Assembly: GCA_031278395.1 (NCBI GenBank)
Contig: JAITKM010000007.1
Coordinates: 64,981-128,980, forward strand
Source of the DNA: Deltaproteobacteria bacterium
GTDB lineage: Bacteria > Bdellovibrionota_C > UBA2361 > SZUA-149 > JAITKM01
Reading direction: 5' to 3'
Length of the DNA: 64,000 bases
In this document: piece after piece, positions 35,912-55,820 of the stretch
Layout of the letters: each line of letters starts with the position of its first letter
Position numbering within the stretch: the stretch's first letter is position 1
The notes under the pieces: model-generated
Told to the model about the DNA's origin: nothing
Databases searched by the model: none
What the model saw: the letters and a program-made list of their open reading frames with translations, nothing else
Translations under genes and position numbers: made by a program

Positions 35912-36901
35912 ATGTCTAATATTCAACAACAAATCAACGATAGTCTGAAAATTGTTCAAAAAATCAACGAGTCCATCTCCAAAACAGTTATTGGACAGCC
36001 AGAACTAAAACGTAAACTTGTCATGGCTTTGCTCACCGATGGGCATGTTCTCTTAGAAGGCGTGCCGGGACTTGCCAAAACTTTGTCGATAAAAGCCTTA
36101 GCTAGCGCTGTGCAAGGTAGTTTCCAACGTATTCAATTTACGCCAGATTTATTGCCAGCTGATTTAATCGGAACAGAAATTTACCGACACCAAGATGGAA
36201 TGTTTCTTGTTCGCAAAGGTCCACTTTTCGCTAATTTCATTTTAGCGGATGAAATCAATCGCGCCCCTGCCAAAGTGCAGTCAGCTTTGCTAGAAACTAT
36301 GCAAGAAAAACAAGTTACAATTGGTAATCAAACCTATAAAGTGCCAGACCCATTTTTTGTGTTAGCCACGCAAAATCCAATTGAACAAGAAGGAACCTAT
36401 CCGCTCCCCGAAGCCCAGATTGATAGGTTTATCATGAAAATCAAAGTTACATATCCTCATCCAGAAGAGGAAATAAAAATTTTAGATTCTTATACTAATA
36501 GCAGAACACAAGACACAACAGACACGGAACGGACTGTCGTCAGCCTAGATGATCTGGCGACTATTAAGGAAGTCTCTCAGCAGGTTTATACAGATGATAA
36601 AATCAAACAATATATTATGAATATCGTACAAGCCACCAGATCTGGCGCAACTCTTGAGAATAAACATCTGACTAACCTAATTTATACAGGAGCCTCACCG
36701 CGAGCCACCATTGCCCTCTTTTTGTGCTCACGAGCTTTAGCTTATTTAGAAGGCAGTACTTTTGTTGTGCCGCAACATGTCAAAGACGTAGCTCATGATG
36801 TTTTGCGACATCGAGTTATTTTATCCTATGAGGCAGAAGCCGAAGGTTTAAATACAGATAAAATTATTTCCATGATTTTAGAACAAGTTCCAGTCCCATA
36901 A
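35912..36901 (+). CDS. MoxR-family AAA+ ATPase
   Basis: Walker A (GVPGLAKT), Walker B (ILADEINRAP) and MoxR-typical length. The start was set at the internal ATG (MSNIQQQ...). Confidence 0.9.
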   Translation: MSNIQQQINDSLKIVQKINESISKTVIGQPELKRKLVMALLTDGHVLLEGVPGLAKTLSIKALASAVQGSFQRIQFTPDLLPADLIGTEIYRHQDGMFLVRKGPLFANFILADEINRAPAKVQSALLETMQEKQVTIGNQTYKVPDPFFVLATQNPIEQEGTYPLPEAQIDRFIMKIKVTYPHPEEEIKILDSYTNSRTQDTTDTERTVVSLDDLATIKEVSQQVYTDDKIKQYIMNIVQATRSGATLENKHLTNLIYTGASPRATIALFLCSRALAYLEGSTFVVPQHVKDVAHDVLRHRVILSYEAEAEGLNTDKIISMILEQVPVP

Positions 36902-36911
36902 TGTAATAGCC

Positions 36912-38000
36912 ATGAATCTATCACCAGAAATCATCGCCGAGTTAAAGACACTTCAAATCACCACCAAAAAATTGGTCACTGCTTCAATTTCTGGGCAGTA
37001 TCGCAGTGTTTTTAAGGGGCGTGGTATTGAATTTGAGGACTTAAAAAACTATCAAGCAGGAGATGATGTGCGCACGATAGATTGGAAAGTTACTGCCCGT
37101 TCGCAACATCCATATATTCGCACTTACCGCGAAGAACGCGAGTTAAATGTGGTGGTGGCGGTTGATATTAGCGGCTCAACGAGCACTGGTTTGCAAGACA
37201 AGTTAAAGAAAGACTTAATTGCTCAAGTTGGGGCAAGTCTTGCGTTAATCGCGCTAAATAACAATGATAAAATTGGGTTAGTAACTTTCTCTGATAAAAT
37301 TGAACAGTATCTTCCGCCACGTAAAGCCCGAAGTGCTGTTTGGCAAATTGGGCAAAAAGTTTTGGCGCCCCATCAAGTTCAAACTCAAGCTCAAACTAAA
37401 TTAGAGATAGTTTTTAATTTTTTAGCTAAGGTTTTAAAACAGCGGGCGATCATTTTTGTCATTTCCGATTTTTTAGATTCTGGTTATGAAAAATCTTTAG
37501 TTCACCTTACTAAAAAACACGACTTAACAACTATTGTGGTAGAAACGCCGATAGATTTAATTCCAGTTCCAAGCAGTAGCTCAAAAGTTGTTAAGTCTGA
37601 CTCAAATCTTCTAAACCAATTCCTCAATACTATGCCAGAAGTAAAACATGCTCTTTCTTACACGCTAGCTCAAGCTAAGAAGCATCCGACTTATAATTCT
37701 TTTCAACCTGCATTAAATTCGACTTTAAATTCTTTACGTTCGACTAGTTTAAAAATACCAAATTCTAAATCTTCCTTAATTAATGTGGTAGATCCAGAAT
37801 CTGGAGCAGAATATACTTTAGATTTTTCAGACAAAGCTTTTCGAGAAAGTTATCTGCAAGCCTATCAGCAAAATAAACAATTGCTGCATGAGTTATTTTC
37901 AAGAAACAAAATTAACGTTATTGAGTTAAGAACTGACGAGCCATTTATGCCTAAATTAAAGGCTTACTTTAATAGTAAGCTAAAGCAGCAACATCCATAA
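36912..38000 (+). CDS. DUF58 (vWA-like) domain protein, MoxR partner
   Basis: DWKVTARSQHPYIRTYREERELNVVVAVDISGS is the DUF58 signature. The gene is immediately downstream of moxR. Confidence 0.8.
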   Translation: MNLSPEIIAELKTLQITTKKLVTASISGQYRSVFKGRGIEFEDLKNYQAGDDVRTIDWKVTARSQHPYIRTYREERELNVVVAVDISGSTSTGLQDKLKKDLIAQVGASLALIALNNNDKIGLVTFSDKIEQYLPPRKARSAVWQIGQKVLAPHQVQTQAQTKLEIVFNFLAKVLKQRAIIFVISDFLDSGYEKSLVHLTKKHDLTTIVVETPIDLIPVPSSSSKVVKSDSNLLNQFLNTMPEVKHALSYTLAQAKKHPTYNSFQPALNSTLNSLRSTSLKIPNSKSSLINVVDPESGAEYTLDFSDKAFRESYLQAYQQNKQLLHELFSRNKINVIELRTDEPFMPKLKAYFNSKLKQQHP

Positions 38001-38001
38001 T

Positions 38002-38619
38002 ATGCCAATAGCTTCTGAAAAAATTTCTACTCTGCATGATGCCCGTCTGGGGTTTGCGGATATTGCTCCGTTGCCACATTTTAAATACTCTTTTTGGACA
38101 ACGGAGAGTGTAAGTATTTTAATACTTTCTCTAGCCACAGTGATTTTAACATGGCTTTATCTTTGGCATAAATTTAAATCGCGACCTGTTGTCCTACCTG
38201 AGCTTTCAGTTAATCAAGTGGTGCATCAAAAAATTAACGACTTATTAAATTTAGTACAGACTGATTCAATTTCGCTAAAAGACTTAGCGGTCAATTTATC
38301 AGAAATAATGCGATTTTTTTTAACTAAGCAAATTAACTTTCAAACTGTTGGACTGACAGTGAGAGAAATTTATTTTATGCTTGCGGATAGTTTAGCAAAA
38401 AATTTACTTAATTCTGAAAAAGTAGAATTAGAAATTCTTGAAGCCAAGATAAAAAACTTTTTTAATTTAACTGAAAATTATATTTTTGCTAAATCCAGCC
38501 AGCAAACTGCCGAGCTTCAAATTGCGCTCATCAATCAAGCTAAGGAAATTATCGAAATCATAAATGGGGAAATAATAAAGCAACCCGATACCAGCGAAAA
38601 ACAGAATAAAAATATCTAG
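38002..38619 (+). CDS. membrane protein of the aerotolerance-operon type (DUF4381-like)
   Basis: A single TM and the position after moxR-DUF58, as in Bacteroides-type bat loci. Confidence 0.35.
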   Translation: MPIASEKISTLHDARLGFADIAPLPHFKYSFWTTESVSILILSLATVILTWLYLWHKFKSRPVVLPELSVNQVVHQKINDLLNLVQTDSISLKDLAVNLSEIMRFFLTKQINFQTVGLTVREIYFMLADSLAKNLLNSEKVELEILEAKIKNFFNLTENYIFAKSSQQTAELQIALINQAKEIIEIINGEIIKQPDTSEKQNKNI

Positions 38620-38818
38620 TATCGGGTTAGGAATGAATTTCATTATAACTTTTAAAGTAAACGATATATAAATTAAGATTGCTTAATCTTAGAATGTATA
38701 TCTAAGTCCAAGCAGGAGTTCATGAGATTGAATCATCTTTCCCTTTACTTTAGGAGTATCCCCGTTAGAGACCTTTGTCCTGAAGTTTAACTCTTCCCCA
38801 AATGTAGTTTTTTTAACT

Positions 38819-40810
38819 TTACCAATCTTTATTAGGTAATTTGTTGTTATACTTTTTGAGTTGTTTAATTGCTTCGACACGCCTAAATTCTTTTAGCGCT
38901 CCTCGATCCTCCTTTAAGGCATTTAATAAGGCTTCACCAGCAATAGCAGATTGTTCCTTTAAATCCTGCCTTTCTTCGCTAGGGTGGAAATTAAAATCTT
39001 CACCAGCCGACTGATTATCTGCACTCGCCTCATTACCCTGAACAACATCATTCAAATCTTGAGAACTATCTTCATCAGCCGCAACCTCTGAGCTGGCGCT
39101 CTGCCCAACATCAAAGCTGCTAGACTGTTCTGAACTTTGCTGACCCGTCTGCCCAGCTCCTGAATCTTTATTCGAACTATTACTAACATTATCTTGCTCT
39201 TCTTCAGGTTCTGTAGATTGTTGCTCAGATTCATCAACATTAGAATTTTCTGACTTAGAATTATTAGCTGAAGATTGGCTTATTTCTGAATTAATCTCTG
39301 CAGCTTGGCTCTGAGCTGTAGAGTTGTTTTGCTGTTCATTATCTTGTCGCTCTTGATTCTGCTCTTGATCAGCATTGTCTTGGGGTTGATTTTCTACTTG
39401 CAATAATTTTTTAGCGTATTCCAAATTATTAGTTACAGCTTTTTGATTTGGCATTATCTTTAAACTCTCCTGATACGCACTAACAGCTTCCTGATACTTT
39501 CCCAACTGCACTAAACTATTTCCTAAATTATAAAAAGCCTCTGCTTTTTGCTGCGCATCTGCCTGCTGGACAGCTTGCTTAAAGTATTGTTCAGCTTCAG
39601 CAAACTTATTCTGTCGATAATAACTATTTCCAAGCCCCAAATTAAGTTTATAATTATCCGGCTCCTGTTCTAACGCCTGCTTAAAAATTTGACTAGCCGT
39701 TTCAAAGTCGCCAAACCTATAGCGCTCCGCTGCTAATTTTCCCAACCCCTCAGCTGATTCAGCAAAAGCTGGAGTGACCAAAAAAAATGTAATTAAAAGC
39801 AAACTATTTGCCCGCCCTACACCTCTAAGCAATAACATTAAAACTGCCAAAAACAGCGGAAGTTGATACCATTCATTCCAAACTTTAGTTTGATTTGTTT
39901 CAAAATCTATATCGTTTAAGCTGGCTTTAATTCGTCGATAAATAGTCTTTGCTGCATTACTATCAGCCAAAGCTGGCAGATAAATTCCACCAGTAGCTTG
40001 CGCTAAATTTTCTAAAAACTCTCCATTTAATTTTGAAATAATAATATTACCCTGCGCATCCTTTTTATAATTATTGCCGTTACCAACTGGAATAGGCGCG
40101 CCAGCTTTAGTGCCAATACCTAAAATATAAAGCTTAATCCCCAGCTCAGTAATTTTTTGTTTAACCCTATCTAAATTACCATCTAACTCTTCACCATCAG
40201 TCAACATAAAAATAGCGCGACTATTATTAGCCACACCCGCTGCACTACTAGTGAAAGCTTCAATACTTTTCTCAAAAGCCAGTTCAAAATTAGTCCCCTG
40301 CACCGGCACAAGATTGGTATTTAACGAATTTAAAAACAACTTAAATGTCGCCATATCTTCGGTCAGTGGCGTTTCAATAAACGCTGTCCCAGCAAAAATC
40401 ACTAAAGACACACGATCACCTTGAAGAATATTGAGCAAATCTGTAATTGCTCTTTTTGCGATTTGTAGACGATCGGGCGACACATCTTTTGCTAACATGC
40501 TTTGCGACACATCAATAGCGACCACAATATCAATGCCTTTTTTATGATTCTCGCGCCAGTTCCAACCATATTGTGGTCGCAGCAGAGCTATAGTTAAAAA
40601 CAAGAGCCAAAGCAGCATAAAATACACTTGCCGTTTTAGGTGTTTTTTATAGGCTTTAAAATCCGGAATAAGCTCCGCCAAAGTTTTAGTTGTCCCTAGC
40701 TGCTTTAAATCTCGGATTTTTCTTTTATAAATAAATAATCTCCCTAGCAACCCTAATAACGGCAGCAAAAATAAAAGAAACAATAAATTGGCATTCCCAA
40801 AGTTCATCAT
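38819..40810 (-). CDS. BatB-like vWA protein fused to TPR repeats (BatB/BatC-like) with acidic Q/S/E/N-rich low-complexity tail
   Basis: The BatA/B N-terminal TM is followed by a vWA MIDAS (VVAIDVSQSM), a second TM, TPR repeats, then a ~150-aa polar low-complexity region. Confidence 0.7.
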   Translation of the reverse strand: MMNFGNANLLFLLFLLPLLGLLGRLFIYKRKIRDLKQLGTTKTLAELIPDFKAYKKHLKRQVYFMLLWLLFLTIALLRPQYGWNWRENHKKGIDIVVAIDVSQSMLAKDVSPDRLQIAKRAITDLLNILQGDRVSLVIFAGTAFIETPLTEDMATFKLFLNSLNTNLVPVQGTNFELAFEKSIEAFTSSAAGVANNSRAIFMLTDGEELDGNLDRVKQKITELGIKLYILGIGTKAGAPIPVGNGNNYKKDAQGNIIISKLNGEFLENLAQATGGIYLPALADSNAAKTIYRRIKASLNDIDFETNQTKVWNEWYQLPLFLAVLMLLLRGVGRANSLLLITFFLVTPAFAESAEGLGKLAAERYRFGDFETASQIFKQALEQEPDNYKLNLGLGNSYYRQNKFAEAEQYFKQAVQQADAQQKAEAFYNLGNSLVQLGKYQEAVSAYQESLKIMPNQKAVTNNLEYAKKLLQVENQPQDNADQEQNQERQDNEQQNNSTAQSQAAEINSEISQSSANNSKSENSNVDESEQQSTEPEEEQDNVSNSSNKDSGAGQTGQQSSEQSSSFDVGQSASSEVAADEDSSQDLNDVVQGNEASADNQSAGEDFNFHPSEERQDLKEQSAIAGEALLNALKEDRGALKEFRRVEAIKQLKKYNNKLPNKDW

Positions 40811-41835
40811 GGAATTACTCTCAACACAGTTGCCACTAACAATTCATAAATAAAAATCAAAACCACTCCCAACGAAAGCGGTAACATGAAATAATCTTTA
40901 TACTCTACATACTGCACAATTTTATCTTCTCGCATTTCAAGTTTATTTATTTCATCATAAATTTTAACCAAAGTTTCTGTATCTTTGGCATAAAAATATT
41001 GACCGCCTGTAGTTTCCGCGATTTCTCTTAAGGTCTTTTCATCTAAGGGCAAGACTTGATAAGTCAAGACGGTTTGCTGCCAAATATTTTCAGTCGGAAA
41101 CGGAACTTTTTCCGAAGACCCAATCCCGATCGTGTAAATCTTTATCCCTAATTCTTTGGCGATACTAGCTGCCCGCAAAGGATGTAAAATACCAGCATTA
41201 CTTTCGCCATCTGAAACTAAAACTACAACTTTTGACTCCCCTTTTAGATCTTTTAAATGTTTGAGAGCTACACCAATCCCGTCACCAATTGCTGTGCTGC
41301 CACCAGCCATGCCAGCTTGAATCAATTTTAAGTATTCTTGAAGAGTTTTTTGGTCTAAGGTTAAAGGACATTGTGTCCAGGCAGTCTCGCCAAAAACAAC
41401 TAAACCAATCCGATCACCTTTGCGTTTTTCAATAAAATCTTGCACGACTTTTTTTAGCGCTGTAATTCGATCAATGCGATTTCTATCATAGAAAAAATCC
41501 AAAGCTCGCATACTATTAGAAACATCAAGAGTTAACATAATGTCCCGCCCGCTAGCGTCCAACTCTGTAAAATACGATCCAGTTTGCGGACGAGCTAAAG
41601 CCAGCACGAATAAGCTGAAAATAGCTATTTTAACGGTATTTAACAGGGGTTTGCGAATTGTGGATCTAAAACTAGGTTGAATTTTTTGGAGCTCAACATT
41701 AGTAGAAAATTTAAGTCTGCTTTGCTGAGTAGTCAGCCAGAAGTTGACAAAGCTTCTCTGCCTTCCCCTGCGTTCCAATAAAAAGGGAATAAAAAATAAC
41801 AATAATAGAAAATATGGACTGGCAAAGTGCAGCAC
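40807..41835 (-). CDS. BatA-like vWA membrane protein
   Basis: BatA N-terminal domain plus vWA MIDAS (MLTLDVSNSM ... VVLVSDGESN). It overlaps the next gene by 4 bp. Confidence 0.8.
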   Translation of the reverse strand: MLHFASPYFLLLLFFIPFLLERRGRQRSFVNFWLTTQQSRLKFSTNVELQKIQPSFRSTIRKPLLNTVKIAIFSLFVLALARPQTGSYFTELDASGRDIMLTLDVSNSMRALDFFYDRNRIDRITALKKVVQDFIEKRKGDRIGLVVFGETAWTQCPLTLDQKTLQEYLKLIQAGMAGGSTAIGDGIGVALKHLKDLKGESKVVVLVSDGESNAGILHPLRAASIAKELGIKIYTIGIGSSEKVPFPTENIWQQTVLTYQVLPLDEKTLREIAETTGGQYFYAKDTETLVKIYDEINKLEMREDKIVQYVEYKDYFMLPLSLGVVLIFIYELLVATVLRVIP

Positions 41836-43038: not shown

Positions 43039-43458
43039 ATGAATAACCTAGTAGGGGCGCCCCCTACAAAGGAACTCGTCGTTATTCATTTCAGCAAGGT
43101 TATTCAGTTCTGCGCCGTTTTTGTTTTTTTATTAACCGAACAACTCCCAAGGGCTTCTAAAAAATGGGTTGACAAACTACTACATACATCTATATACGGC
43201 AACACTTTTATGGATATTAACAACACATCAATTACTATAGAGCAGCTAGCGTATAAGATAAAAAAACTTAAACTAGAAACTCCGGCGCTGTTATTTCTGG
43301 AAATGCACAAGCCATTAACTTCGCTGTTGCATCATGGAACAGTTTTTTTTGCTCCTCTGGTTGCCCCACTTTTTGGTCTAAAGCGTTATTCAAAAATACA
43401 AACTTTGCTTGCCGACCGAAATAATATTGAACAACTAATCAAAAAACTAACTACTTAA
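43039..43458 (+). CDS. hypothetical protein (139 aa; may start internally)
   Basis: ORF only. Confidence 0.25.
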   Translation: MNNLVGAPPTKELVVIHFSKVIQFCAVFVFLLTEQLPRASKKWVDKLLHTSIYGNTFMDINNTSITIEQLAYKIKKLKLETPALLFLEMHKPLTSLLHHGTVFFAPLVAPLFGLKRYSKIQTLLADRNNIEQLIKKLTT

Positions 43459-43462
43459 ATAG

Positions 43463-44296
43463 ATGTCTCAAGCTAGCCCTTTCGATTTAGTTTTTATTTT
43501 CTTCTGTCTCATTGTCTTGGGGTATTGTATCCTTGCAGCTTACCGTGGAAAAAATATTTTTGTTAGAAAGATTAGCGGGATTGCTGCTATCGATGAAACT
43601 ATTGGCAGAAGTATTGAGCTGGGACGTCCCATTTCTTTTACCTCTGGGCTAGCTAGTATTGGTCCTGTTTTTTATGCCTGCTTAAGCGTGCTGCAGCATA
43701 TAGCCCGAAAAGTTGCGAGCTTTAACGCTAAGCTTTTTGTGCCTTGTTACGACCCTGAAACATTAGTCCTCAGCGATATTACTATTCAAAACGCCTATAA
43801 AAAAGAAAAACGTTTTGCTAACTATGACCCCGGCACAACTCGTTATTTATCGTCTAGTCAGTTTGCTTTTGCCAGTGGTTATATTGGTATTATTCAGCGT
43901 GAAAATGTAGGCGGCGCCTTTTTATTTGGCACATATGCTGCGGAGTCTTTAATCTTAGCTTCGGCAGGGCAAGAAATAGGCGCAATGCAGGTTGCAGCCA
44001 CGACCTCAAACGAGCAAATTCCGTTTTTTATCACCACCTGCGACTATACTTTAATTGGCGAAGAGTTATTTGCAGCTGGAGCTTATCTATCCCAAGACCC
44101 TGTACAAACAGGAAGTTTAAAAGCTCAAGACATTATTAAATCCTCATTATTAGTATTAATTATAGTAGGAGTTTTAATTTCAACAGGAATCTCAATTCTG
44201 GATAAACCAGATTCAAAAAATCTTTCTTTTAAAACCTGGAGTAAGCAAATGGAACAAAATAATTTTTTAGCTCAAGCGCTAAAAAGTAAATGGTAA
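43463..44296 (+). CDS. hypothetical bitopic membrane protein (277 aa)
   Basis: N- and C-terminal TM segments flank a ~200-aa domain. It starts 5 bp after the previous ORF. Confidence 0.35.
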   Translation: MSQASPFDLVFIFFCLIVLGYCILAAYRGKNIFVRKISGIAAIDETIGRSIELGRPISFTSGLASIGPVFYACLSVLQHIARKVASFNAKLFVPCYDPETLVLSDITIQNAYKKEKRFANYDPGTTRYLSSSQFAFASGYIGIIQRENVGGAFLFGTYAAESLILASAGQEIGAMQVAATTSNEQIPFFITTCDYTLIGEELFAAGAYLSQDPVQTGSLKAQDIIKSSLLVLIIVGVLISTGISILDKPDSKNLSFKTWSKQMEQNNFLAQALKSKW

Positions 44297-44639: not shown

Positions 44640-45842
44640 ATGTTGTTTATGGTACACTATATGAATATCTTTCAACTATCATACAAAAATCTCTTACGGC
44701 GCAAGCTGCGCACCACTTTTACTATTTTGGGGATTACACTTTCAGCCTGGGTGTTAATTACACTGCTGGGTTTTAACAATGGCTATGAAAATTCTCTTAA
44801 CAAAGACATTGAGGGGATGGGGTTCCAAATTGTGCTAACTGCTAAAGGCTGCCCTTACGAAGCAGCAACTTTAATGTTAAAAGGTGGAACTGGTCTCAGA
44901 TATATGCCTGAAGAAATTGTTCAAGGAGTTGCTAACGATCCCGACGTCGCGCAAACTACCGCTATGTTAATGCATGCCGAATTTGACCCTGATAAAGGCG
45001 AAAATGGCGGAACCATTGTGTATTTAGGAATTGATATTCCAAGCTATCCTGAGCTAAAGCCTTATTTAACTTTTAAACAAGGCGCTTGGTTTCAAAATGC
45101 GGCTGAACGCAAAGTTGTGCTAGGATTTGAGGCAGCTGAGCTAGAACAACGTGAAGTTGGCGATTCAATGCTACTTCCCGGCAGTGCTGAAGAATATCAA
45201 GTTGTTGGTATTTTAAAGCGCACTGGCACACAAGACGATGGCATGATTTTCCTACCGCTTAAAACAGTGCAAAAAGTTTTTAATAAAGAAGGGCAACTGA
45301 CTATGCTCGGTATACGTTTAAAACAAACTGCGGACGCTAATGCTTTTGAAGAAAAACTCTATAGCTTGCCAGATGTGCAAGTAGTCTCTATGGCGCAGGT
45401 GAAAAATACTATTTTAGGACTAGTTTCAAGCGCCAAAGTTATTGTATTATCCATTGCCTTTATTGCGTTTGTAATTGCGATGTTTGGCGTTCTCAATACC
45501 GTATTAATGTCAGTCTTTGAACGTTACCAAGAGATTGGAATTTTAAAAAGTATGGGCGCTTTGCCCAAAGATATTTTTGTCATGATTTTAATTGAGACTA
45601 CCCTACTTTGCACCTTAGGCGGAATATTGGGAATTTCGCTGGCATTTGTATTTTCGGGCGCATCGGAAATGGCAATTCGTTTTTTTCTGCCTTTTACTCC
45701 AAACGGAAATTTAATTTTAATTACCACCCCGACTGTTGTTTGGTCTTTTCTAACAATTGCCTTAATCGGAATTATTGGCGGAATTTATCCTGCTCAGCGG
45801 GCAGCCCATATCCGCCCTTTAGATGCTATTCGGAGTGAATAA
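44640..45842 (+). CDS. ABC transporter permease, FtsX/MacB/LolE family
   Basis: Four TMs with a large extracytoplasmic domain. The FtsX C-terminal region is present. Confidence 0.8.
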   Translation: MLFMVHYMNIFQLSYKNLLRRKLRTTFTILGITLSAWVLITLLGFNNGYENSLNKDIEGMGFQIVLTAKGCPYEAATLMLKGGTGLRYMPEEIVQGVANDPDVAQTTAMLMHAEFDPDKGENGGTIVYLGIDIPSYPELKPYLTFKQGAWFQNAAERKVVLGFEAAELEQREVGDSMLLPGSAEEYQVVGILKRTGTQDDGMIFLPLKTVQKVFNKEGQLTMLGIRLKQTADANAFEEKLYSLPDVQVVSMAQVKNTILGLVSSAKVIVLSIAFIAFVIAMFGVLNTVLMSVFERYQEIGILKSMGALPKDIFVMILIETTLLCTLGGILGISLAFVFSGASEMAIRFFLPFTPNGNLILITTPTVVWSFLTIALIGIIGGIYPAQRAAHIRPLDAIRSE

Positions 45843-45848
45843 AATTAT

Positions 45849-46538
45849 ATGAATATCATTACTGCAAAGAACCTAACTAAAATTTATGCTCGTGGAGTAG
45901 AAAAAGTTTTTGCTCTAAATGACGCTAGTTTTGTTATTAAAAAAGGCGAAATTCTGTCTATTACTGGCGCTTCTGGTTCGGGCAAAACGACCTTAGTTAA
46001 TATTTTAGGTTGTCTTGATAATCCAACTTCGGGAGTTTTAACTGTGGCTGAACAACAAGTTTTTGGCGAACAAAAGGAGTTGTCCGAAGCAGCTTTAACT
46101 TTGATTCGACGCCAATATTTTGGTTATGTATTTCAAAAATTTTTCTTAATTCCAACTCTGACGGTTCAAGAAAATATTATGTTGCCGTCGATTTTTCAGA
46201 AAAACCTCCAAACTAATCTGCAAAACCTACAGCCTACTTTAGAAATACTGGGATTAACTCAGCGGGCGAGGCATTTGCCGGCAGAGCTGTCTGGTGGTGA
46301 AATGCAACGGGTAGCCATTGCCAGAGCGTTAATTAATAAGCCGCAAGTTTTGCTTGCTGATGAACCAACCGGTAATTTGGATAGTAAGCGTTCTGACGAA
46401 ATTAAAAATTTGTTAGTAACTCTCAACCGCGAACAGGGAATTACAATAATTTTAGTAACTCACAATCCAGATTTAGCTAAAATTGGCTCGTCAGCAATTG
46501 AGCTGCTAGATGGAAAAATATTAAAAAAATCATGTTAG
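45849..46538 (+). CDS. ABC transporter ATP-binding protein (LolD/MacB-ATPase-like)
   Basis: Walker A GASGSGKTT, ABC signature LSGGEMQRVAIARAL, Walker B LLADEPTGNLD. Confidence 0.9.
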   Translation: MNIITAKNLTKIYARGVEKVFALNDASFVIKKGEILSITGASGSGKTTLVNILGCLDNPTSGVLTVAEQQVFGEQKELSEAALTLIRRQYFGYVFQKFFLIPTLTVQENIMLPSIFQKNLQTNLQNLQPTLEILGLTQRARHLPAELSGGEMQRVAIARALINKPQVLLADEPTGNLDSKRSDEIKNLLVTLNREQGITIILVTHNPDLAKIGSSAIELLDGKILKKSC

Positions 46539-47173
46539 TTTTAACTAGAAAAACAGGACAAGGCATAAATATCAGTAATGAGATAGTTATCACGATTAAA
46601 GAAATTAAGGGTAATCAAGTGCGACTAGGGATTGAAGCTAGCTCAAACTTTAAGATTTACCGTAGTGAAATTTATGAACAAATCAAAGCTGAAAACACAC
46701 AGGCGCTAAATTTATCTCAAGAAACGCCGAAAAATTTAAGCAACTTTGCCAATACACAAAAGATTAAATTCAATAGTAGCCGCTTTGGCGAGCTGGAAAT
46801 TAATCCGTCTGCAGTAATTGAATTTCCTTTTGGGTTAGTTGGGATACCTGATGCGCATCAATTTGTAATGCTTGAATATAGTTCGCCCTTTTCTTGGTTA
46901 CATTCAATAGACCACCCAGATATTGCATTTGTAGTTATTAACGGAGCTGAATTGGAGCCGCAATTTGATGTGCAAGTTTTGACAGCTGATAAAGATATTG
47001 ATTTAAGACCAAACGATGAAATTGCGCTAATTAATGTTGTAACTGTTCGACCTAATATTCAGGCAAGCACAGTCAATGTAAAAGCTCCGATTGTAGTCAA
47101 TATGAGAAATAAAAAAGCCAAACAAATAATTATCGACTCTACAGATTTATCGATAAATTTACCTCTGTTTTAG
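46532..47173 (+). CDS. CsrA-FliW fusion protein (carbon storage regulator domain fused to flagellar assembly factor FliW domain)
   Basis: Residues 1-60 (MLVLTRKTGQGINISNEIVITIKEIKGNQVRLGIEASSNFKIYRSEIY) match CsrA. Residues ~95-213 (FPFGLVGIP...PFSWLHSID...STVNVKAPIVVN..KKAKQIII) match FliW. The ORF is continuous and overlaps the preceding ABC ATPase gene by 7 nt. Confidence 0.7.
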   Translation: MLVLTRKTGQGINISNEIVITIKEIKGNQVRLGIEASSNFKIYRSEIYEQIKAENTQALNLSQETPKNLSNFANTQKIKFNSSRFGELEINPSAVIEFPFGLVGIPDAHQFVMLEYSSPFSWLHSIDHPDIAFVVINGAELEPQFDVQVLTADKDIDLRPNDEIALINVVTVRPNIQASTVNVKAPIVVNMRNKKAKQIIIDSTDLSINLPLF

Positions 47174-47254
47174 TTTTTAATAAAAACAAGATAAACCTTA
47201 TTTAAGAAAGATAAGGTTTTTTCCAAGAAAAATATGATTGTGATTTGACTATCT

Positions 47255-47901: not shown

Positions 47902-48546
47902 CTAACGCCATATAGTCTCGGAGGTTGATAAGTCAACCCATTTATCAATACCATGCCAACTATCCGATTTACCGTATGAACCAAAATCAACTAACATTAT
48001 CTCGACTCCAAATTGACGACAAACGTATAAAACATAACTTAGCTCGCGGCTAGGACAGAGCACAATTGCTGTCCGTTTAATAGACAAATCTTTTTCTTGT
48101 GACAAATCTAAATTAAAATCCCTACTCTCCAAATCATCTGTAATTTGTATATTGTCAGAGCCAGACTGCGACAAAGAGTGATTTAAAAAATTCCCTGTCG
48201 CAAAAAGCATTAAATCAGTCGCCATATGCACGTCCATGGCAACTTTTCTTTGCACATTTTTTGGCGGCAGTCTTTTGGCAATAACTTCAAGTCCTGATCG
48301 CTCGACAGCCGACAGAAAAGAGAACTGACGCGCATCATCTTCGTAAGGAACTAGAGTATAATAACGAGAAATTTCTGGAACTAAACCTTCGCTCAGGCTA
48401 GTAACTAATTTTCCTAAGTCAAGTTTTTTTTCTAAACGATAGATTGCTCTATCTAGACTCATCCCATCAATGAACAAACCAACTGCCCTTTTGTTTCTTC
48501 TACGCACTGCACCATTTTTTAATTTCTCTATTTCTAGTCTACTCAT
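47902..48546 (-). CDS. NYN-domain (LabA-like) protein, predicted RNase
   Basis: VGLFIDGMSL matches the FIDGxNL motif. Later acidic motifs are consistent with the NYN fold. Confidence 0.5.
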   Translation of the reverse strand: MSRLEIEKLKNGAVRRRNKRAVGLFIDGMSLDRAIYRLEKKLDLGKLVTSLSEGLVPEISRYYTLVPYEDDARQFSFLSAVERSGLEVIAKRLPPKNVQRKVAMDVHMATDLMLFATGNFLNHSLSQSGSDNIQITDDLESRDFNLDLSQEKDLSIKRTAIVLCPSRELSYVLYVCRQFGVEIMLVDFGSYGKSDSWHGIDKWVDLSTSETIWR

Positions 48547-48671: not shown

Positions 48672-49850
48672 ATGTTACAAAATTTACACCTCCCTCAATA
48701 TTATAAATCAACCTTGATTGAACAGATAAAATCGCAAGCTCCAAATTCTGCGCGAGATCAAACTCCATATACAGTTCAGTTAGGCAAGCTAACTTTTAAA
48801 TTAGCAAGACACTTTGGTTTTTGTTTTGGGGTGCAGCAGGCGTTAAGTTTAGCTTATAAAACTATTGCTGAAAATAAAGGCAAACGTGTTTTTCTTTTAA
48901 GTGAAATAATTCATAACCCTATTATTTATGACGATCTAGTTAAACAAGGTATAAAGTTTTTAATGGATTCTAAAAGTAATATTTTAATTCCATTTGAAAC
49001 CTTAAAACCTGACGACATTGTGTTGATTCCGGCTTTTGGCATTACTTTAGAATTGCGAAAACATTTGCAAGATTTAGGAATTGACATTTTAAGATACGAC
49101 ACGACCTGTCCTTTTGTGCAAAAAGTCTGGAACACCGTGAAAAAACTAGGACAAACTGGCTATACAATTATTATCCATGGCAATCCAAACCATGAAGAAA
49201 CCAAGGCTACTTTTTCATATGCTCAAGCTATCGCTCCGACTTTAATTCTTAAAAATAAAAATGAAGCTTTAAAATTAGCAGATTTTATTAAAGACAGGAC
49301 TGAGTTAAGTAAATTTAATGCTAATTTTAGGCATTGTTCTAAAAATTTTGACCCGCAACAAGATTTAATCAAAATCGGCTTAGTTCAACAAACTACAATG
49401 TTAACTAATGAAACCGAAGAGATAAGCGAGATTTTAAAAACCGCTCTTAACCAAAAAAACAAAGCTGAGAATATCGGAGAAGCTATTTTTGCTGATACTA
49501 AGCATACCCTTTGTTATGCCACGCAAGCCAATCAATTAGCTACTAAAGTTTTATGTCAAACTAGTAATGCTGATTTAGCGTTCATTGTGGGTGGCTATAA
49601 TAGTTCAAATACTAAGCACTTGGTTGAGTTAGCTTCGCAAGATTTAAAAACATTTTTTATTAAAGATAGTGCGGAGATTTTAAACTCAAAAACAATCCGG
49701 CATTTTGATATTCAGACCTCTACAATCCAAGAAACCACAGACTGGCTACCTACCAAAAGCAACTTAATAATTGCTATTTCCGCTGGTGCAAGCTGCCCTG
49801 ACAAGGCGCTTGAGGAGGTTATGTTAAAAATCCAAGCTTTGGCGACATAA
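48672..49850 (+). CDS. ispH: 4-hydroxy-3-methylbut-2-enyl diphosphate reductase
   Basis: LytB-family motifs (FGFCFGVQQA, conserved Cys positions). A long-form IspH. Confidence 0.8.
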   Translation: MLQNLHLPQYYKSTLIEQIKSQAPNSARDQTPYTVQLGKLTFKLARHFGFCFGVQQALSLAYKTIAENKGKRVFLLSEIIHNPIIYDDLVKQGIKFLMDSKSNILIPFETLKPDDIVLIPAFGITLELRKHLQDLGIDILRYDTTCPFVQKVWNTVKKLGQTGYTIIIHGNPNHEETKATFSYAQAIAPTLILKNKNEALKLADFIKDRTELSKFNANFRHCSKNFDPQQDLIKIGLVQQTTMLTNETEEISEILKTALNQKNKAENIGEAIFADTKHTLCYATQANQLATKVLCQTSNADLAFIVGGYNSSNTKHLVELASQDLKTFFIKDSAEILNSKTIRHFDIQTSTIQETTDWLPTKSNLIIAISAGASCPDKALEEVMLKIQALAT

Positions 49851-49878
49851 AGTCCCCCTACTTGATAAGAGAGAATTA

Positions 49879-50049
49879 TATCCCTTCCCCCATGGTCTCA
49901 CGCCAACTTTTAGGAATGTTAGCAGCTCCTTTAGTATTCATATATCGTGTAACTTCACGTTTCTCTTGTGCCGTATTTTGTTCCTGAAAAATAATCGTCC
50001 CACCAAAAATACATAGAAATAAAAAAACTATAATAAAAAGCCATTTCAT
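49879..50049 (-). CDS. possible small membrane/secreted peptide (56 aa)
   Basis: ATG ORF MKWLFIIVFLFLCIFGG... with a hydrophobic N-terminus. It is not in the ORF track and could be spurious. Confidence 0.15.
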
Positions 50050-50693
50050 AAAATTGTCTCTTGTTTTTTTTGATAAAATTTGTAACTATTCAGTAGTGGT
50101 AAAATCTAGTATCCTGCCACCATAAATAACAATATAACTGTGACTTCTTCGTAGAGACTCACACTTCAAAAAAAAGCTATTATTATGAGTATCAGCAATG
50201 TTGTTTATATAATTTCTGTTTTTTACAAAAAAAACCAATAAGTTTAATATATTAAAATTTACAGAAACAACCCGATACCAAAAAAAATATTAGAGAGTAA
50301 AGATAAAAATTAATACTATTAATGTTATTACAATTTTTTTCTAAATGTCACATTTTTTCAGTATTAAATAATAACCATATTACAACAAATTGTTTAAAGT
50401 AGATGTGAGAAAACGAGCGTCTCGTCTAGCTAAGATTAGTTATAGAAATTAGAAAACTTATTTCACCCCGATTACGCCAAGTGGTGACTGTTTACAGTTG
50501 TAAAAAGTTTAAGACTGGATCGAACCCCTCAGAAAAAAAAGATAGGACCTCTCTCCTTTATATTTTCATATTTATTTTATCGTGGAACTATTGCTAATCG
50601 TTTTATTTTTTGTTATGCATTCCGCCCGCGTTTAATATGTAATGCGTTTAATCTTATAAAATTTTTTATATTGAGTAGAAGAGTCTAAGGATA

Positions 50694-50745
50694 AAGCCAA
50701 CATTTATAACAACTTAGAGTTTTGTTATAGATGTTGGCTTTTTTA
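50694..50745 (+). terminator. rho-independent terminator (19-bp stem, 9-nt loop, T6 tail)
   Basis: aagccaacatttataacaa / ttgttatagatgttggctt pair with one mismatch and are followed by tttttt. Confidence 0.6.
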
Positions 50746-50802
50746 TGCAAAAGGTTGTCTTTTGTTGGTCAACAAATAATCTTAAAAAGAAAGGGTTAGT
50801 TT

Positions 50803-51141
50803 ATGAAAACCACAAAAGAGAAAGTAGAAACAATCAGTTCTATCTTGCAAAAATTTCCTTCTTTAAAAGAACTGTTAGAAGGAGATACTTACAAGATTCG
50901 CAACATCCTCAACGAAGATCCAAGATTAATTTGTATAGCAAGAAATTTCATCAATGATTATATTTACCTAATAAAATATAACATCCAACAGTTAGAAATC
51001 CAGCTTAACTGTTGTAATGAAAAAGAAAAACGTAATCAAATGGTTGTTCAAATATCAAAAATTGATCAATTTCTGACATTTTTAAACGACAGAGACTGTT
51101 GGTTAGAAAAGTTACAAATAGAATTCGCTGATCATTGCTAA
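50803..51141 (+). CDS. hypothetical protein (112 aa), monocistronic
   Basis: The ORF is bracketed by intrinsic terminators on both sides. Confidence 0.35.
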   Translation: MKTTKEKVETISSILQKFPSLKELLEGDTYKIRNILNEDPRLICIARNFINDYIYLIKYNIQQLEIQLNCCNEKEKRNQMVVQISKIDQFLTFLNDRDCWLEKLQIEFADHC

Positions 51142-51162
51142 CCAACTTCTTTCACGGCTTTT

Positions 51163-51230
51163 AACTTGTGTTAAAATTTTACTTTTCTCCACTTTGATCA
51201 TAAAATTTTAACACAAGTTTTTTTGTTTTT
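51163..51230 (+). terminator. rho-independent terminator (perfect 18-bp stem, T-rich tail)
   Basis: aacttgtgttaaaatttt ... aaaattttaacacaagtt followed by tttttttgttttt. Confidence 0.65.
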
Positions 51231-51400
51231 CCCAAAAGGTTTTAACTGTATAAACAAGTCAATAAAATTTCTTCTAACCCTTTAGAAAAAATGGTAATTT
51301 TTATTTGTCCTTATCATCATCTAGTAACCAATCAGGGGCAGACATCACATAATTTTTATCTCTATAATACTACCAAATTGAACTCGCCAATATCCCTAAA

Positions 51401-52041: not shown

Positions 52042-53745
52042 TTAGTCACCCTTTTTCGACTTCCATAAACGCAAAATAAAATCAAGCAGCAAAATTAGTC
52101 CAGCCAACAAAATCAAAAGCTGCCACAATTCTTGCCGCTTTTCATTTTCAGCTTTTTTACTCTCCGCATTAAGGTTCTCAAGATTCAAATCCTCATTAAC
52201 ATAAAATTTATGTCTCAGATTAGTATTAGACTCTGTTGGATCAGCTATTTCATTGGCAAATCCTGCGCTACTACTATTTAACCAATCGATTAAGTTTAAA
52301 AACATAATTGAAGTTAAGGGAGTTTTTGCTCCCTCAAAAGGCAATAACTCAAACCCAATGCCTGCAAATCTTGTTCCTTCATTCTCACCAGCCACCATAA
52401 TTGCTCCCTGTTCTGTATTAATTATTGCCTGCGCCCACTTAGAAGGTTTAAAAATTAAAGAAGTCTTAAGCTCTAACAAGTTTAATTTTAAATACGAAGT
52501 AAGTATATGAGTATTTTCAAATGACGTAACCTTAGGCAAATTAACTTTAAGAGGTGAATTTTGTTTATCTAGCGCCAAAGGAAAAAGCGGGTTTTCCCTT
52601 GGCGGCAAAATTAAAAGTGTCGGGATATGTTCGGCATATAATGGTGCTGTCCGATGAAAAATTAAAGTAGCGTACCGCTGAACTTCATTATGCGCTAATT
52701 TATTAAACTCCTCTGGCGCAATAACTTTAAATTTAAAATTAGAAATATTTTTTAAACCTAGTTTTTCTTTTGCCAACTGTGAAATAACTAAAATGCTACT
52801 GGCAGCCGTATCAGCAACTGCAAGCTGGGCAGTATTATCCAAGGCTATGGAATCTATAAAATCCGCGGTCTGGTTCGGAAAAATTTCGAGTTTATAATTA
52901 ACAGCGTCCGCTTGTTTCTCAGCTAATACAGTTTGGGCATTAAACAACACTTGAGCATTTGCGCCGGCTAGAAGTTTGATTTTTTGTTCCTCGATTAACT
53001 TAAAATCAGAGTTGCCTACTTGCTTAAATAATTTAACTGGAAATGTCGCGGAGCCAACTCCGGAATAAAATACTCCAGCTTGAAGTTTGCCATCTTGATT
53101 AAGTCTCAAACTATTAATATAGGCATTGGACTGGGGGATACCGACAACTAAACTCGTTACCCGCTGAGTTAGTTGTTTTGTATCTCCCGCTATTTTATCG
53201 CTAACTACCAAGATTTTATTAAATACTGGATTCTGCAAAAGTTCAGCTAAGTTTAAGGTTAGATTATCCGAAGTTTTAGAAACTGTTATTTGATTTATAG
53301 CCCTTAGCACTTCGTTTTTATCAGCCTCTTCTAAAACTTTCTCTAATTTAGGTGAGGTTTTAAAAACTGTCCAACTCCTGCTCTTAGGTTCAGTATTAAG
53401 TTGCTCTCTAACTTTTTCCACAGCTAACTGTAAATGACTAACTCCGCTTTTTGAAACTGAGGACATGCTTAACGAATTATCAAACAAAATAACGTTGGTT
53501 GGCTTATACTTTTTAAGACTAGGCTGAATTAAAGCTAAAATTAACAAGCTTAAAGCTGTAAGTTCCAAAAAAAAACGCAGAGGTAATTTAATTTTTTGTT
53601 TAATAACCTTCCGTGCCGCAAGTTGTTTATAGATTAAGATACTCGAAACCTTCTTTAAATTACCTTGCGTTCGGTTCAAGTAGGCAAAGGCGAGCAGCGG
53701 CAAGGCGAACAATAAAAACAAAAACGGTAAATTACCAAAAATCAT
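52042..53745 (-). CDS. membrane protein with BatA-type N-terminal double-TM domain and vWA-like MIDAS, C-terminal TM anchor (567 aa)
   Basis: MIFGNLPFLFLLFALPLLAFAYLNR is the BatA N-terminal domain. DNSLSMS is MIDAS-like. A C-terminal TM is present. Confidence 0.55.
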   Translation of the reverse strand: MIFGNLPFLFLLFALPLLAFAYLNRTQGNLKKVSSILIYKQLAARKVIKQKIKLPLRFFLELTALSLLILALIQPSLKKYKPTNVILFDNSLSMSSVSKSGVSHLQLAVEKVREQLNTEPKSRSWTVFKTSPKLEKVLEEADKNEVLRAINQITVSKTSDNLTLNLAELLQNPVFNKILVVSDKIAGDTKQLTQRVTSLVVGIPQSNAYINSLRLNQDGKLQAGVFYSGVGSATFPVKLFKQVGNSDFKLIEEQKIKLLAGANAQVLFNAQTVLAEKQADAVNYKLEIFPNQTADFIDSIALDNTAQLAVADTAASSILVISQLAKEKLGLKNISNFKFKVIAPEEFNKLAHNEVQRYATLIFHRTAPLYAEHIPTLLILPPRENPLFPLALDKQNSPLKVNLPKVTSFENTHILTSYLKLNLLELKTSLIFKPSKWAQAIINTEQGAIMVAGENEGTRFAGIGFELLPFEGAKTPLTSIMFLNLIDWLNSSSAGFANEIADPTESNTNLRHKFYVNEDLNLENLNAESKKAENEKRQELWQLLILLAGLILLLDFILRLWKSKKGD

Positions 53746-53807
53746 AAAATATTATTCTAGTAGCTTGTAATATTTAAAACTTGTTCCCTACCCCTCTTCT
53801 TAGAAAA

Positions 53808-53878
53808 TTAAACCACAGAGCGCACAGAGAACAAAGAGTTTTTTATTAGAATCCTCCTCTGTACTCTCGGTAGTTTAA
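53808..53878. repeat. intergenic repeat motif copy 3 plus its imperfect inverted partner (palindromic, REP/MITE-like unit)
   Basis: ttaaaccacagagcgcacagag ... 27 nt ... ctctgtactctcggtagtttaa. Confidence 0.4.
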
Positions 53879-53917
53879 AAAAACCAGTTGTAAAGTTTTA
53901 GATGTACACCCTACTGG

Positions 53918-54805
53918 TTAGCGTAATAATCCTAAACTTGGCAGTCGTTGTAGCAGGACACTTTCTATATCTTCAGCAGTTGAAATCAGAACGTGCGGCA
54001 CACCGGACTTTTTAGCAAATTTCTCTATTTGCTCAATATGATCTACTAAAATTTTAAGATATTCACGTTTTGACTTCTCATCTAAAGCCAGCTCAATTAC
54101 TGCATTACTTTCAACGTCCAACACCTTGGTAGTTGTTAAATTTAATTCCAAATTTAACTCAGCTGGAGTTAGCACTTGCAATAAGACAACTTCAAAATTT
54201 TTCCCCACTAATAATTTAATGCCTGCAATTATTTGTTCTAAATTACAAAGAAAATCAGAAATCACAAAACATTTTCCAGGGGTTTTGAGTTTTTGGACTG
54301 CTAACCCTAGCTCCAATGGCAAATCAATTTCTCCGCAAGGCGTAATTTTATTTAAAAAATTTTCAGCTTTGGCAATTAATCTTGGATTAATAAATTTTGG
54401 TGAATTCTCTTGTCCTAACACAGAAAAAGTTACAGTATCTCCATCAGTCAAGGCAACATACCCTAAGGCTAAGGCTAACTTGGAACAAAAAGCAAACTTA
54501 TGATCCTCACTCTGCATTGAACCACTACCATCTAGCAGAAACATAACATTTAAGTCCTGCTCTTCACGAAATTGTTTAATATATAATCTATCCGAACGAG
54601 CGAAGGCTCCCCAGTCAATATTTCTAAAATCATCACCTGGCGTATAAAGTTTATAATCTGAAAACTCTAAGCCATGCCCCTTTCTAAGCGAATTATGTCC
54701 GCCTTGACGTGAGCCTAAAAACACACGTCGAGTATGAATTTTTAGCTGTTGTAACTGTTTATAAAAGCGCGGGGAAAAAGAGGATAGTAATAATTCGTCA
54801 CTCAT
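53918..54805 (-). CDS. DUF58 (vWA-like) domain protein, second copy
   Basis: DWGAFARSDRLYIKQFREEQDLNVMFLLDGSGSM is the DUF58 signature. Confidence 0.8.
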   Translation of the reverse strand: MSDELLLSSFSPRFYKQLQQLKIHTRRVFLGSRQGGHNSLRKGHGLEFSDYKLYTPGDDFRNIDWGAFARSDRLYIKQFREEQDLNVMFLLDGSGSMQSEDHKFAFCSKLALALGYVALTDGDTVTFSVLGQENSPKFINPRLIAKAENFLNKITPCGEIDLPLELGLAVQKLKTPGKCFVISDFLCNLEQIIAGIKLLVGKNFEVVLLQVLTPAELNLELNLTTTKVLDVESNAVIELALDEKSKREYLKILVDHIEQIEKFAKKSGVPHVLISTAEDIESVLLQRLPSLGLLR

Positions 54806-54818
54806 AAAACGATGAACC

Positions 54819-55820
54819 TTATTTTTTCACCACTTCCTTAATCAAGGAATCTGCTGTAATACCTTCGGCTTCAGCTTGGTAATTCAAAATCAAGCGATGG
54901 CGCAGAGCTGGGGCCAGAGCAGAATTAATATCTTCATATGCTAAGTTTAGCCGACCATCTAACAAAGCGAAAACTTTAGCCGCCAGCAGCACTGATTGCG
55001 CACCGCGTGGACCTGGTCCAAAACGAACATATTCAGCTGTGGCATCCGTGCAATTTTTACTATTCGGCGTTAAGGCAAAAATTGTTCCAATTAGCAAATC
55101 CTCAAGTGGCGGAGCAATTACTACACGTCGCACTAAAGTCCGCATCTGCATAATAATATTGGTAGTCTCAGCAGGCTCAAAAATTGGAGCAAGTTTGATA
55201 TTCTGGGTGCTAGTTGTGCGTGAAAGAATTTCTTTTAATTCAGTCGAGTTTGGCGAGGGCATTAAAACTTTAAATAAAAAGCGGTCAAGTTGAGCTTCGG
55301 GCAAAGGATATGTGCCTTCTAATTCAACTGGGTTTTGAGTTGCCAACACAAAAAATGGCTCTGGCAAACGGTGAGTTGTGCCTAGCACGCTGACTTGATG
55401 TTCTTCCATTGCCTCAAGCAAGGCTGATTGGGTTTTAGGTCCAGTGCGGTTAACTTCGTCGGCAAGCACAATATTTGAAAAAATAGGACCTGGCTTAAAA
55501 ACAAAAGAACGCCTACCGTGTTCGTCTTCGGTTAAAACCTGTGTGCCTGTAACATCGCTAGGCATTAAGTCAGAAGTAAATTGAATACGGTGAAATGATA
55601 GTCCCATGGTTTGGGCGATAGATTTGACTAGTAAAGTTTTGCCTAATCCAGGCGCACCTTCCAGTAAAACATGACCGCCCGCAAAAATAGCAGTTAAAGC
55701 TAGACGAATTGCTTCGGTCTGCCCGACGATTAATCTTGAAATTTCTGATTCAAGACGCTGAAAGGTGTTGGCAAATTCTGTAACTTGGCTACGTAATTCA
55801 TTTTGATTATTTGGTTCCAT
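54819..55820 (-). CDS. MoxR-family AAA+ ATPase, second copy
   Basis: GAPGLGKT Walker A, VLADEVNRTGP Walker B. It is paralogous to the gene at 35912-36901. Confidence 0.9.
   Translation of the reverse strand: MEPNNQNELRSQVTEFANTFQRLESEISRLIVGQTEAIRLALTAIFAGGHVLLEGAPGLGKTLLVKSIAQTMGLSFHRIQFTSDLMPSDVTGTQVLTEDEHGRRSFVFKPGPIFSNIVLADEVNRTGPKTQSALLEAMEEHQVSVLGTTHRLPEPFFVLATQNPVELEGTYPLPEAQLDRFLFKVLMPSPNSTELKEILSRTTSTQNIKLAPIFEPAETTNIIMQMRTLVRRVVIAPPLEDLLIGTIFALTPNSKNCTDATAEYVRFGPGPRGAQSVLLAAKVFALLDGRLNLAYEDINSALAPALRHRLILNYQAEAEGITADSLIKEVVKK

Follow-up and report, generated by a model that had tools for sequence, protein, structure and literature searches.

Does the open reading frame (ORF) at 46532–47173 on the + strand of the 64 kb stretch of DNA analysed here (the window) encode a genuine single-chain fusion of the regulator CsrA to its antagonist FliW and, if it does, how would such a protein act? 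CsrA is among the best-studied bacterial translational regulators and FliW is the CsrA antagonist outside the Gammaproteobacteria; the canonical gene order is fliW followed by csrA. We find that 46532–47173 is a real gene, maintained by selection, whose product is a single-chain CsrA–FliW protein, and we propose that this protein is a self-tethered 1:1 module of CsrA and its antagonist which would be released by a FliW ligand, presumably flagellin, a reading to which we assign a probability of about 0.6.

The ORF runs from ATG to TAG without an in-frame stop (213 codons plus the TAG), and its product is identical to NCBI entry MDR2337243.1, which is named only as 'CsrA' and comes from a metagenome-assembled genome labelled 'Deltaproteobacteria bacterium'. 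The initial annotation of this DNA had expected the Pfam domains of CsrA and FliW at about residues 1–60 and 90–213, respectively, and both were found. The CsrA model (PF02599) matches residues 1–52 with 76.8 bits, above the curated threshold of 27, and the FliW model (PF02623) scores 100 bits on residues 96–211 (threshold, 25), the alignment covering positions 1–121 of the 122 in the profile. The NCBIfam csrA model TIGR00202 was also passed (75.4 against a cut-off of 70.1). The NCBIfam equivalog models for FliW aligned to residues 79–213, but all of them remained below their cut-offs (the best was NF009793, with 99.1 against 130), and by these scores the protein is a divergent member of the FliW family. 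In a sequence search of the Protein Data Bank (PDB), the CsrA chain of the Geobacillus complex (5DMB_D) aligned with residues 2–70 and the FliW chain (5DMB_A) with residues 83–207; 2AJ7 was a further match of the FliW domain. The gene and its parts are as follows.

46532..47173, + strand: complete CsrA–FliW fusion ORF (ORF call, Pfam, identity to the NCBI entry)
46532..46705, + strand: CsrA core domain, residues 1–58 (PF02599, TIGR00202, alignments, Foldseek)
46706..46765, + strand: junction, residues 59–78, comprising the CsrA C-terminal extension and a few linker residues (5DMB_D alignment, model confidence, codon comparison)
46766..47170, + strand: FliW domain, residues 79–213 (PF02623, 5DMB_A and 2AJ7, Foldseek)

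The linker between the domains, originally put at about 35 residues, is really shorter. It comprises about 20 residues (59–78), most of which belong to the C-terminal extension that FliW-type CsrA proteins naturally carry, with few extra residues; the alignment with 5DMB_D extends to residue 70, and the N-terminal strand of FliW (KIKFNSSRFGELEI) starts from about residue 77. Two full-length proteins are therefore joined nearly head to tail. Codons 59–80 contain no ATG, GTG or TTG in frame, which makes internal initiation of a separate FliW impossible.

The AlphaFold2 (AF2) monomer model, calculated from an alignment of 79 sequences, has a mean predicted local distance difference test score (pLDDT) of 80.8 and a predicted template-modelling score (pTM) of 0.75, with low confidence only at residues 61–77 (pLDDT of about 50). 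It consists of strands within residues 11–36, a helix at 45–60, the low-confidence tether at 61–77 and a confidently predicted FliW domain. Foldseek superposes the FliW part, which has the β-barrel-like fold of FliW, on 5DMD_B with a TMt of 0.81 and a root-mean-square deviation of 2.6 Å over 139 columns, and on 5DMB_A with a TMt of 0.80, while the CsrA part of the monomer model matches CsrA structures with TMt values of 0.65–0.77. The pTM of 0.75 would fit domains that take up a defined position relative to each other. The model of a homologue with a short linker (P0003) likewise has a pTM of 0.75 and a junction of low confidence.

A single ORF of this kind could in principle be produced by a sequencing or assembly error, or by a recent pseudogenizing frameshift, that merged two adjacent genes. 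The two-gene ancestor that we presume (see below) overlaps by only 4 nucleotides (nt), such that one insertion or deletion error could mimic a fusion, and the exact window protein has been recorded from one contig only. A fusion of 80% identity (P0002) is, however, present on an independent JGI contig (L042) and keeps the frame through the junction. When the window and L042 are compared, the junction codons 59–78 comprise eight identical, ten synonymous and two nonsynonymous pairs; the corresponding numbers are 27, 22 and nine for the CsrA core and 52, 51 and 32 for the FliW part. Since synonymous changes dominate, the junction is translated in the fusion frame and is under purifying selection. 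Sequence similarity between the two loci extends from 1 nt upstream of the start codon to the penultimate nucleotide of the stop codon, and the flanks are unrelated. A sister clade of 205-residue fusions, found on four ENA contigs, shares 51–53% identity with the window protein and has a junction that is 13 residues shorter, and assemblies from JGI, ENA, NCBI and Logan add dozens more fused clusters. On these sequence comparisons the explanation by artefact is effectively refuted, and we give it a negligible probability.

The architecture is also not unique and recurs in metagenomes. An exhaustive HMMER search of 1.84 billion representatives returned 18 clusters (50% identity) with a representative that aligns to the whole length of the fusion profile without a break, and a profile search of a collection of 5.8 billion clusters returned at least 79 clusters (90% identity) with both PF02599 and PF02623. 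Among the 284 proteins that were retrieved, the order CsrA–FliW was found in 99 and the order FliW–CsrA in none, and the linkers of the CsrA–FliW fusions range from six to 43 residues. A profile scan of metagenome contigs gave, among the matches listed, unfused pairs only and no further members of the 213-residue clade, and a scan of species-representative genome contigs gave only three unrelated, unfused fliW–csrA loci. The fusions are annotated as 'CsrA' at NCBI and as 'FliW' at JGI, and these names hide the fused architecture. We found no paper describing natural CsrA–FliW fusions, but a mention in Mukherjee 2011/2016 or Altegoer 2016 is possible. Both components, and the way in which they interact, belong to textbook knowledge, whereas we found no description of the single-chain form, of its repeated occurrence, of its constant orientation or of how often it lies in a non-flagellar context.

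Other domain combinations were seen in the same searches. Tandem CsrA–CsrA proteins (covalent 'dimers'), a 303-residue protein with four CsrA domains and a CsrA–CsrA–FliW protein were found (P0072, P0101, P0119, P0141, P0099 and P0048; L030 1116–1523), and there are five clear tandem FliW–FliW proteins of 260–326 residues among the best FliW matches (P0023, P0031, P0034, P0043 and P0054). One protein of 195 residues (P0103) was classed as FliW–FliW by the hidden Markov models (HMMs), yet its sequence looks like a single FliW with an acidic insert.

The residues with which CsrA binds RNA, which we take to be L2, L4, R6, R/K7, V/I42, R44 and I47 in E. coli numbering (Mercante 2006), align in the window protein with L2, L4, R6, K7, I42, R44 and I47. 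R44 shows no variation across the 79 fusions, and L2, L4 and R6 are conserved in at least 90% of them. The window CsrA also has N55, which is at least 90% conserved in the same 79 fusions, and a C-terminal extension of the FliW type. In the FliW domain, residues F133, N182, A185, A196, K197 and Q198 are the equivalents of F58, N108, A111, A122, K123 and Q124 of B. subtilis FliW, and N182, P186 and Q198 are invariant in the 79 fusions. In B. subtilis, N55 of CsrA contacts Q124 of FliW; F58, N108, A111 and Q124 are needed for CsrA binding and A122/K123 for the inhibitory step; mutating N55, N108 and Q124 abolishes both binding and antagonism; and N55 and Q124 are invariant wherever CsrA and FliW co-occur (Oshiro & Kearns, bioRxiv 10.1101/2020.07.02.184341). 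Of the positions conserved among 181 free FliWs, the window clade moreover retains nearly all. On the sequence evidence the two halves are intact and remain matched to each other. The claim of the initial annotation that one polypeptide carries a full CsrA followed by a full FliW is borne out by the agreement of HMMs, PDB homology, predicted fold, contact residues and recurrence, and the regulator is indeed covalently tethered to its antagonist, as a single ORF carries both complete domains.

In the mechanism that we propose, the N-terminal CsrA domains would pair as the usual intertwined dimer which binds GGA motifs in mRNA leaders, and in each chain a flexible tether of about 17 residues, formed by the CsrA C-terminal extension, would connect CsrA to a FliW domain of its own. 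The FliW domain would dock on helix α1 around N55, through the equivalent of the B. subtilis N55–Q124 contact, and CsrA with its FliW domain docked would be antagonized non-competitively by default. Capture of the FliW domain by a FliW ligand, which in flagellated cells would be unsecreted flagellin, would free CsrA to repress translation. The FliW:CsrA ratio would be fixed at one FliW per CsrA chain and the local concentration of the antagonist would be raised, with the set-point of the partner switch shifted and the pool of free FliW removed. Dimerization, docking in cis, auto-inhibition and release by ligand are steps that we infer by homology to the systems of B. subtilis and Geobacillus. 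The FliW:CsrA ratio matters critically in B. subtilis, where translational coupling enforces it (Oshiro 2019, PMC6529632); a fusion is the most robust way of fixing this ratio. An enrichment of GGA in the spacers upstream of the fusion genes, which might have pointed to autoregulation, was not consistently found: L009 has ten against 5.5 expected and the others have at most the expected number.

The Hag–FliW–CsrA partner switch of B. subtilis, reportedly described by Mukherjee in 2011 and 2016, uses the same two families, and the window protein has the equivalents of its N55, N108/A111/Q124/F58 and RNA-binding residues as well as the CsrA C-terminal extension. The two systems differ in that B. 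subtilis has two translationally coupled genes, fliW–csrA, whereas the window has one polypeptide, CsrA–FliW; in that the tethered protein would provide one FliW for every CsrA chain, hence 2:2 in a dimer, compared with about one FliW per dimer in B. subtilis; and in that the window protein has K41 and no D41–K123 salt bridge, lies in a non-flagellar locus and is accompanied by no flagellin gene in the 64 kb. Both chains of the heterotetramer from Geobacillus thermodenitrificans (5DMB) are recognizable in the window protein by sequence and by predicted fold (TMt of 0.80 for FliW and 0.65 for CsrA), but that complex is noncovalent, whereas in the window protein the C-terminus of CsrA runs into the N-terminus of FliW with about 6–12 unaligned residues between them. 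In the CesT–CsrA complex (PDB entry 5Z38) CsrA is likewise controlled by a protein and not by a small RNA. CesT is, however, unrelated to FliW and binds the RNA-binding face of CsrA competitively, and we know of no fusion of CesT to CsrA.

The domain order had been described as the reverse of the usual one. This holds with respect to the canonical fliW–csrA order, which is found in 21 of the 26 unfused loci among the matches listed, but the nearest unfused relatives have the same csrA–fliW order as the fusion; csrA precedes fliW in the unfused relatives L001, L002, L014, L017 and L019. The free FliWs closest to that of the window (P0008 and P0010) are 50–54% identical to its FliW domain (53–54% for P0008), and both are encoded downstream of csrA. 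In the locus of P0008 (L001) the order is flgK–flgL–csrA–fliW, and the csrA stop and fliW start overlap by 4 nt (ATGA). The unfused pairs behind flgK–flgL (L001/P0008 and L044/P0010), which come from related uncultured bacteria, share gene order and similar FliW sequences with the fusion but differ from it in having two ORFs, a basic or disordered CsrA tail of 66 residues and a location in a cluster of flagellar hook-associated genes; they probably represent the ancestral state. The fusion would then have derived from an overlapping csrA–fliW pair of this kind. Since the fusion of the window lineage keeps the local csrA–fliW order and the genes overlap there, a frameshift or small deletion near the 4 nt overlap could have made it by removing the csrA stop and the fliW start.

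The long tail of the unfused CsrAs deserves a brief description of its own. The csrA gene of L001 (9630–10004) encodes a basic tail of 66 residues, and the unfused CsrAs of the sister lineage (L001 and P0020) carry a Lys/Arg/Gly/Ser-rich C-terminal tail of about 65 residues beyond the FliW-binding extension. CsrA is usually 60–80 residues in length and a long C-terminal tail is unusual.

The fusions do not share a single origin. In a neighbour-joining tree, a crude distance tree based on about 135 columns, they fall at roughly ten separate positions among the free FliWs. P0007 is a free FliW: it begins with a start codon of its own, 18 nt downstream of an in-frame stop. It shares about 60% identity with both fused sub-clades; the two sub-clades themselves share only 49–56%. 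Between the window FliW domain and the FliW domains of the two further fusion clades examined (P0063 and P0024), identity is only 26–34%. These comparisons indicate that the fusions are polyphyletic, by repeated fusion or fission, and that the architecture is evolutionarily labile. The largest fusion clade carries the label Desulfobaccales, which like the other taxon labels is the depositors' own. Its members (234–253 residues; for example MGO9621183.1 and MGP8050534.1) resemble the window protein in domain order, in the N55/N/P/Q contacts and in their non-flagellar loci, but their FliW domain (P0063) is only 26–33% identical to that of the window clade and their linker has 36 residues; the low identity suggests an independent origin. 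The exclusive orientation CsrA-then-FliW, set against the prevailing fliW-then-csrA order of unfused genes, suggests a structural constraint, because it is the CsrA C-terminal extension that binds FliW and the CsrA N-terminus (L2, L4 and R6) would lie in the RNA-binding and dimer interface.

The surroundings of the gene in the window contain the following features.

44640..46538, + strand: genes for a MacB/FtsX-type permease (44640–45842) and an ABC ATPase (45849–46538) (Pfam domains)
46532..46538, + strand: overlap ATGTTAG between the fusion start and the ABC ATPase stop (ORF coordinates)
47193..47225, + strand: AT-rich, terminator-like hairpin with a U-run after it, immediately 3' of the fusion gene and between convergent genes (folding)
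Elsewhere in the window: an RND efflux operon, grpE–dnaK–dnaJ, and genes for pyrophosphatase, IspH, endonuclease III and others (Pfam)

The ABC ATPase ORF ends in a TAG and overlaps the ATG of the fusion by 7 nt. The hairpin downstream of the fusion has a predicted free energy of −9.8 kcal/mol (z = −3.5); a consensus scan for promoters and terminators was at background level, and it missed this hairpin because the stem has few G–C pairs. Co-transcription and translational coupling with the ABC ATPase gene are likely in the window genome. The overlap pointed out in the initial annotation is real, but it is lineage-specific and is absent in the 80%-identical homologue, in which the fusion gene (on L042) follows a 290 nt spacer and precedes a gene for a RelB-family antitoxin. 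In the clade of 205-residue fusions the gene follows one for a ClpA/B-like ATPase. The Desulfobaccales-type gene is monocistronic and divergent from mfd–surA–aminoacyl-tRNA synthetase genes in three species, with an upstream spacer of 440–720 nt (L009 9561–10000, L011 9390–10000 and L013 9278–10000) and no flagellar genes within 10 kb. In one case (P0024; L008 2–1941) a Flagellin_N (FlgL-like) ORF immediately precedes the fusion gene and another fliW, unfused, comes after it, such that tethered and free FliW coexist in this genome.

Unfused relatives do sit in late-flagellar gene clusters. The window fusion lies outside any such cluster, its neighbours being the ABC/FtsX exporter and an inorganic pyrophosphatase. 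A Pfam scan of the 45 window ORFs of at least 120 residues that were judged to be real genes found no flagellar families, which upholds the earlier statement that the 64 kb contain no flagellin or fli genes; the genes recognized by Pfam have housekeeping and envelope functions only. HMMs built from the fusion family detected no second csrA or fliW among the window ORFs of at least 45 residues, and when the window was searched with Rfam no RNA family came up, which also means no sponge RNA of the CsrB kind. The GC content of the window is about 36%, and the nearest named relatives of its DnaK (72–76% identity) come from metagenome-assembled genomes (MAGs) of Bdellovibrionales, Bdellovibrionota and Oligoflexia.

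Several observations weigh against a self-tethered module that is released by flagellin. The Pfam scan found no flagellin, flgK/L or fliS gene within the 64 kb window, and most fused genes lie outside flagellar loci (the window, L042, L004, L009, L011 and L013), an exit that could mean loss of the flagellin input. One FliW per CsrA dimer suffices in B. subtilis, and a tethered 2:2 complex might be permanently off. Position 41 of the window CsrA is a lysine, which faces the equivalent of FliW K123, and the D41–K123 salt bridge is absent; in B. subtilis this bridge is required for antagonism, although it is reported to be specific to Bacillales (bioRxiv 10.1101/2020.07.02.184341). The AF2 models, lastly, are of monomers, and with the low-confidence junction of P0003 they leave docking in cis presumptive. 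Part of this evidence would also suit a repurposing that is independent of the flagellum, in which an auto-inhibited CsrA acts on non-flagellar mRNAs and its FliW domain senses another protein ligand or none. The six separate non-flagellar contexts just listed point that way, as does the labelling of the largest fusion clade as Desulfobaccales, an order with a non-motile type species; that species has only 14 genes of the motility category COG-N, a figure which concerns the type species and not the fusion-bearing genomes (PMC3156406). The Desulfobaccales-type clade has in addition changed positions that are conserved in free FliWs (W122 to C, R84 to A, F85 to L and A185 to S), and roles of FliW/CsrA beyond motility are reported in non-motile C. 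difficile strains and in Geobacter. The window clade, however, keeps essentially all of the residues conserved in free FliWs, the nearest relatives of its fusion are in flagellar loci, the fusion P0024 directly follows a FlgL-like gene, and DnaK places the window organism among MAGs of the Bdellovibrionota type, a phylum in which many members are flagellated. We regard repurposing as the main rival, less likely than the self-tethered module released by flagellin but quite possible. A bolder form of the idea takes the fusions in general to be distinct, self-contained, auto-inhibited repressors that have repeatedly been uncoupled from the flagellum, with a non-flagellin ligand in non-motile lineages such as the Desulfobaccales and with the window gene as a member of an exporter or housekeeping operon; we consider this somewhat less likely still.

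There are two further readings. The fusion could be a device for co-expression only, with CsrA constitutively active and FliW serving as a flagellin-binding or chaperone module, which would ensure equal synthesis or bring flagellin near its own mRNA. Fusions of interacting partners often do reflect pressure for co-expression, the linker is predicted to be flexible, and the Bacillales salt bridge of the inhibitory step is missing. Against this, the N55/Q198/N182 contact set is invariant or nearly so in the 79 fusions, which would be unlikely if the domains no longer touched, and the strict CsrA-then-FliW orientation fits the geometry around the C-terminal binding site of CsrA; a mere co-expression device is accordingly improbable. 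Less probable again is that the fusion is a dedicated regulator of the adjacent MacB/FtsX–ABC exporter, controlling or sensing export. The 7 nt start/stop overlap on a shared strand would suit such a role, and no terminator is predicted between the genes, the only terminator-like hairpin lying after the fusion gene. The L042 homologue shares none of these flanks, with its 290 nt upstream spacer and RelB-like downstream gene, and exporter genes adjoin the fusion in none of the other contexts examined. The exporter was rejected as a functional partner on this absence of synteny, and the ABC/FtsX overlap is an accident of local gene order that lies outside the proposed mechanism. The self-tethered CsrA–antagonist module released by a FliW ligand remains the reading that we prefer.

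Natural single-chain forms provide tools for the questions of how FliW inhibits CsrA non-competitively and why their stoichiometry is tight. The fusions fix the stoichiometry, show which termini can be joined (the C-terminus of CsrA to the N-terminus of FliW in 99 cases, with none in the opposite order), offer linkers of 6–43 residues and could be taken directly into structural studies and existing complementation assays in B. subtilis. The fused genes outside flagellar loci and the clade labelled Desulfobaccales also make the long-suspected flagellum-independent role of FliW/CsrA testable.

Some other loci of the window merit mention. Upstream of the FtsX/ABC genes, and separated from the permease gene by a gap of 344 nt, lies a pair of genes (43039–44296, + strand) consisting of an ORF of 139 residues that matches no Pfam model and, after a further 4 nt, one for a DUF6754 protein (261.9 bits). 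On the other side of the fusion, a gene for a 214-residue NYN-domain protein, a predicted RNase (47902–48546, − strand), lies beside the pyrophosphatase gene and is convergent with the fusion neighbourhood. A region of about 1.5 kb (49850–51400) has only short ORFs (up to 116 residues) and no Rfam match. Two separate clusters of MoxR AAA+/DUF58/vWA/BatA–TPR genes, which resemble Bat 'aerotolerance' operons, are located at 35834–41835 and 52042–55820. Downstream of the dnaK operon there is an AbiEi antitoxin/AbiEii nucleotidyltransferase toxin pair (18918–20617, − strand) of the type IV toxin–antitoxin or abortive-infection kind. A gene for a bacterial α2-macroglobulin of 1884 residues (26416–32070, − strand) is divergent from one for a PBP1C-type transglycosylase/transpeptidase (32476–34821, + strand), which is a known pairing.

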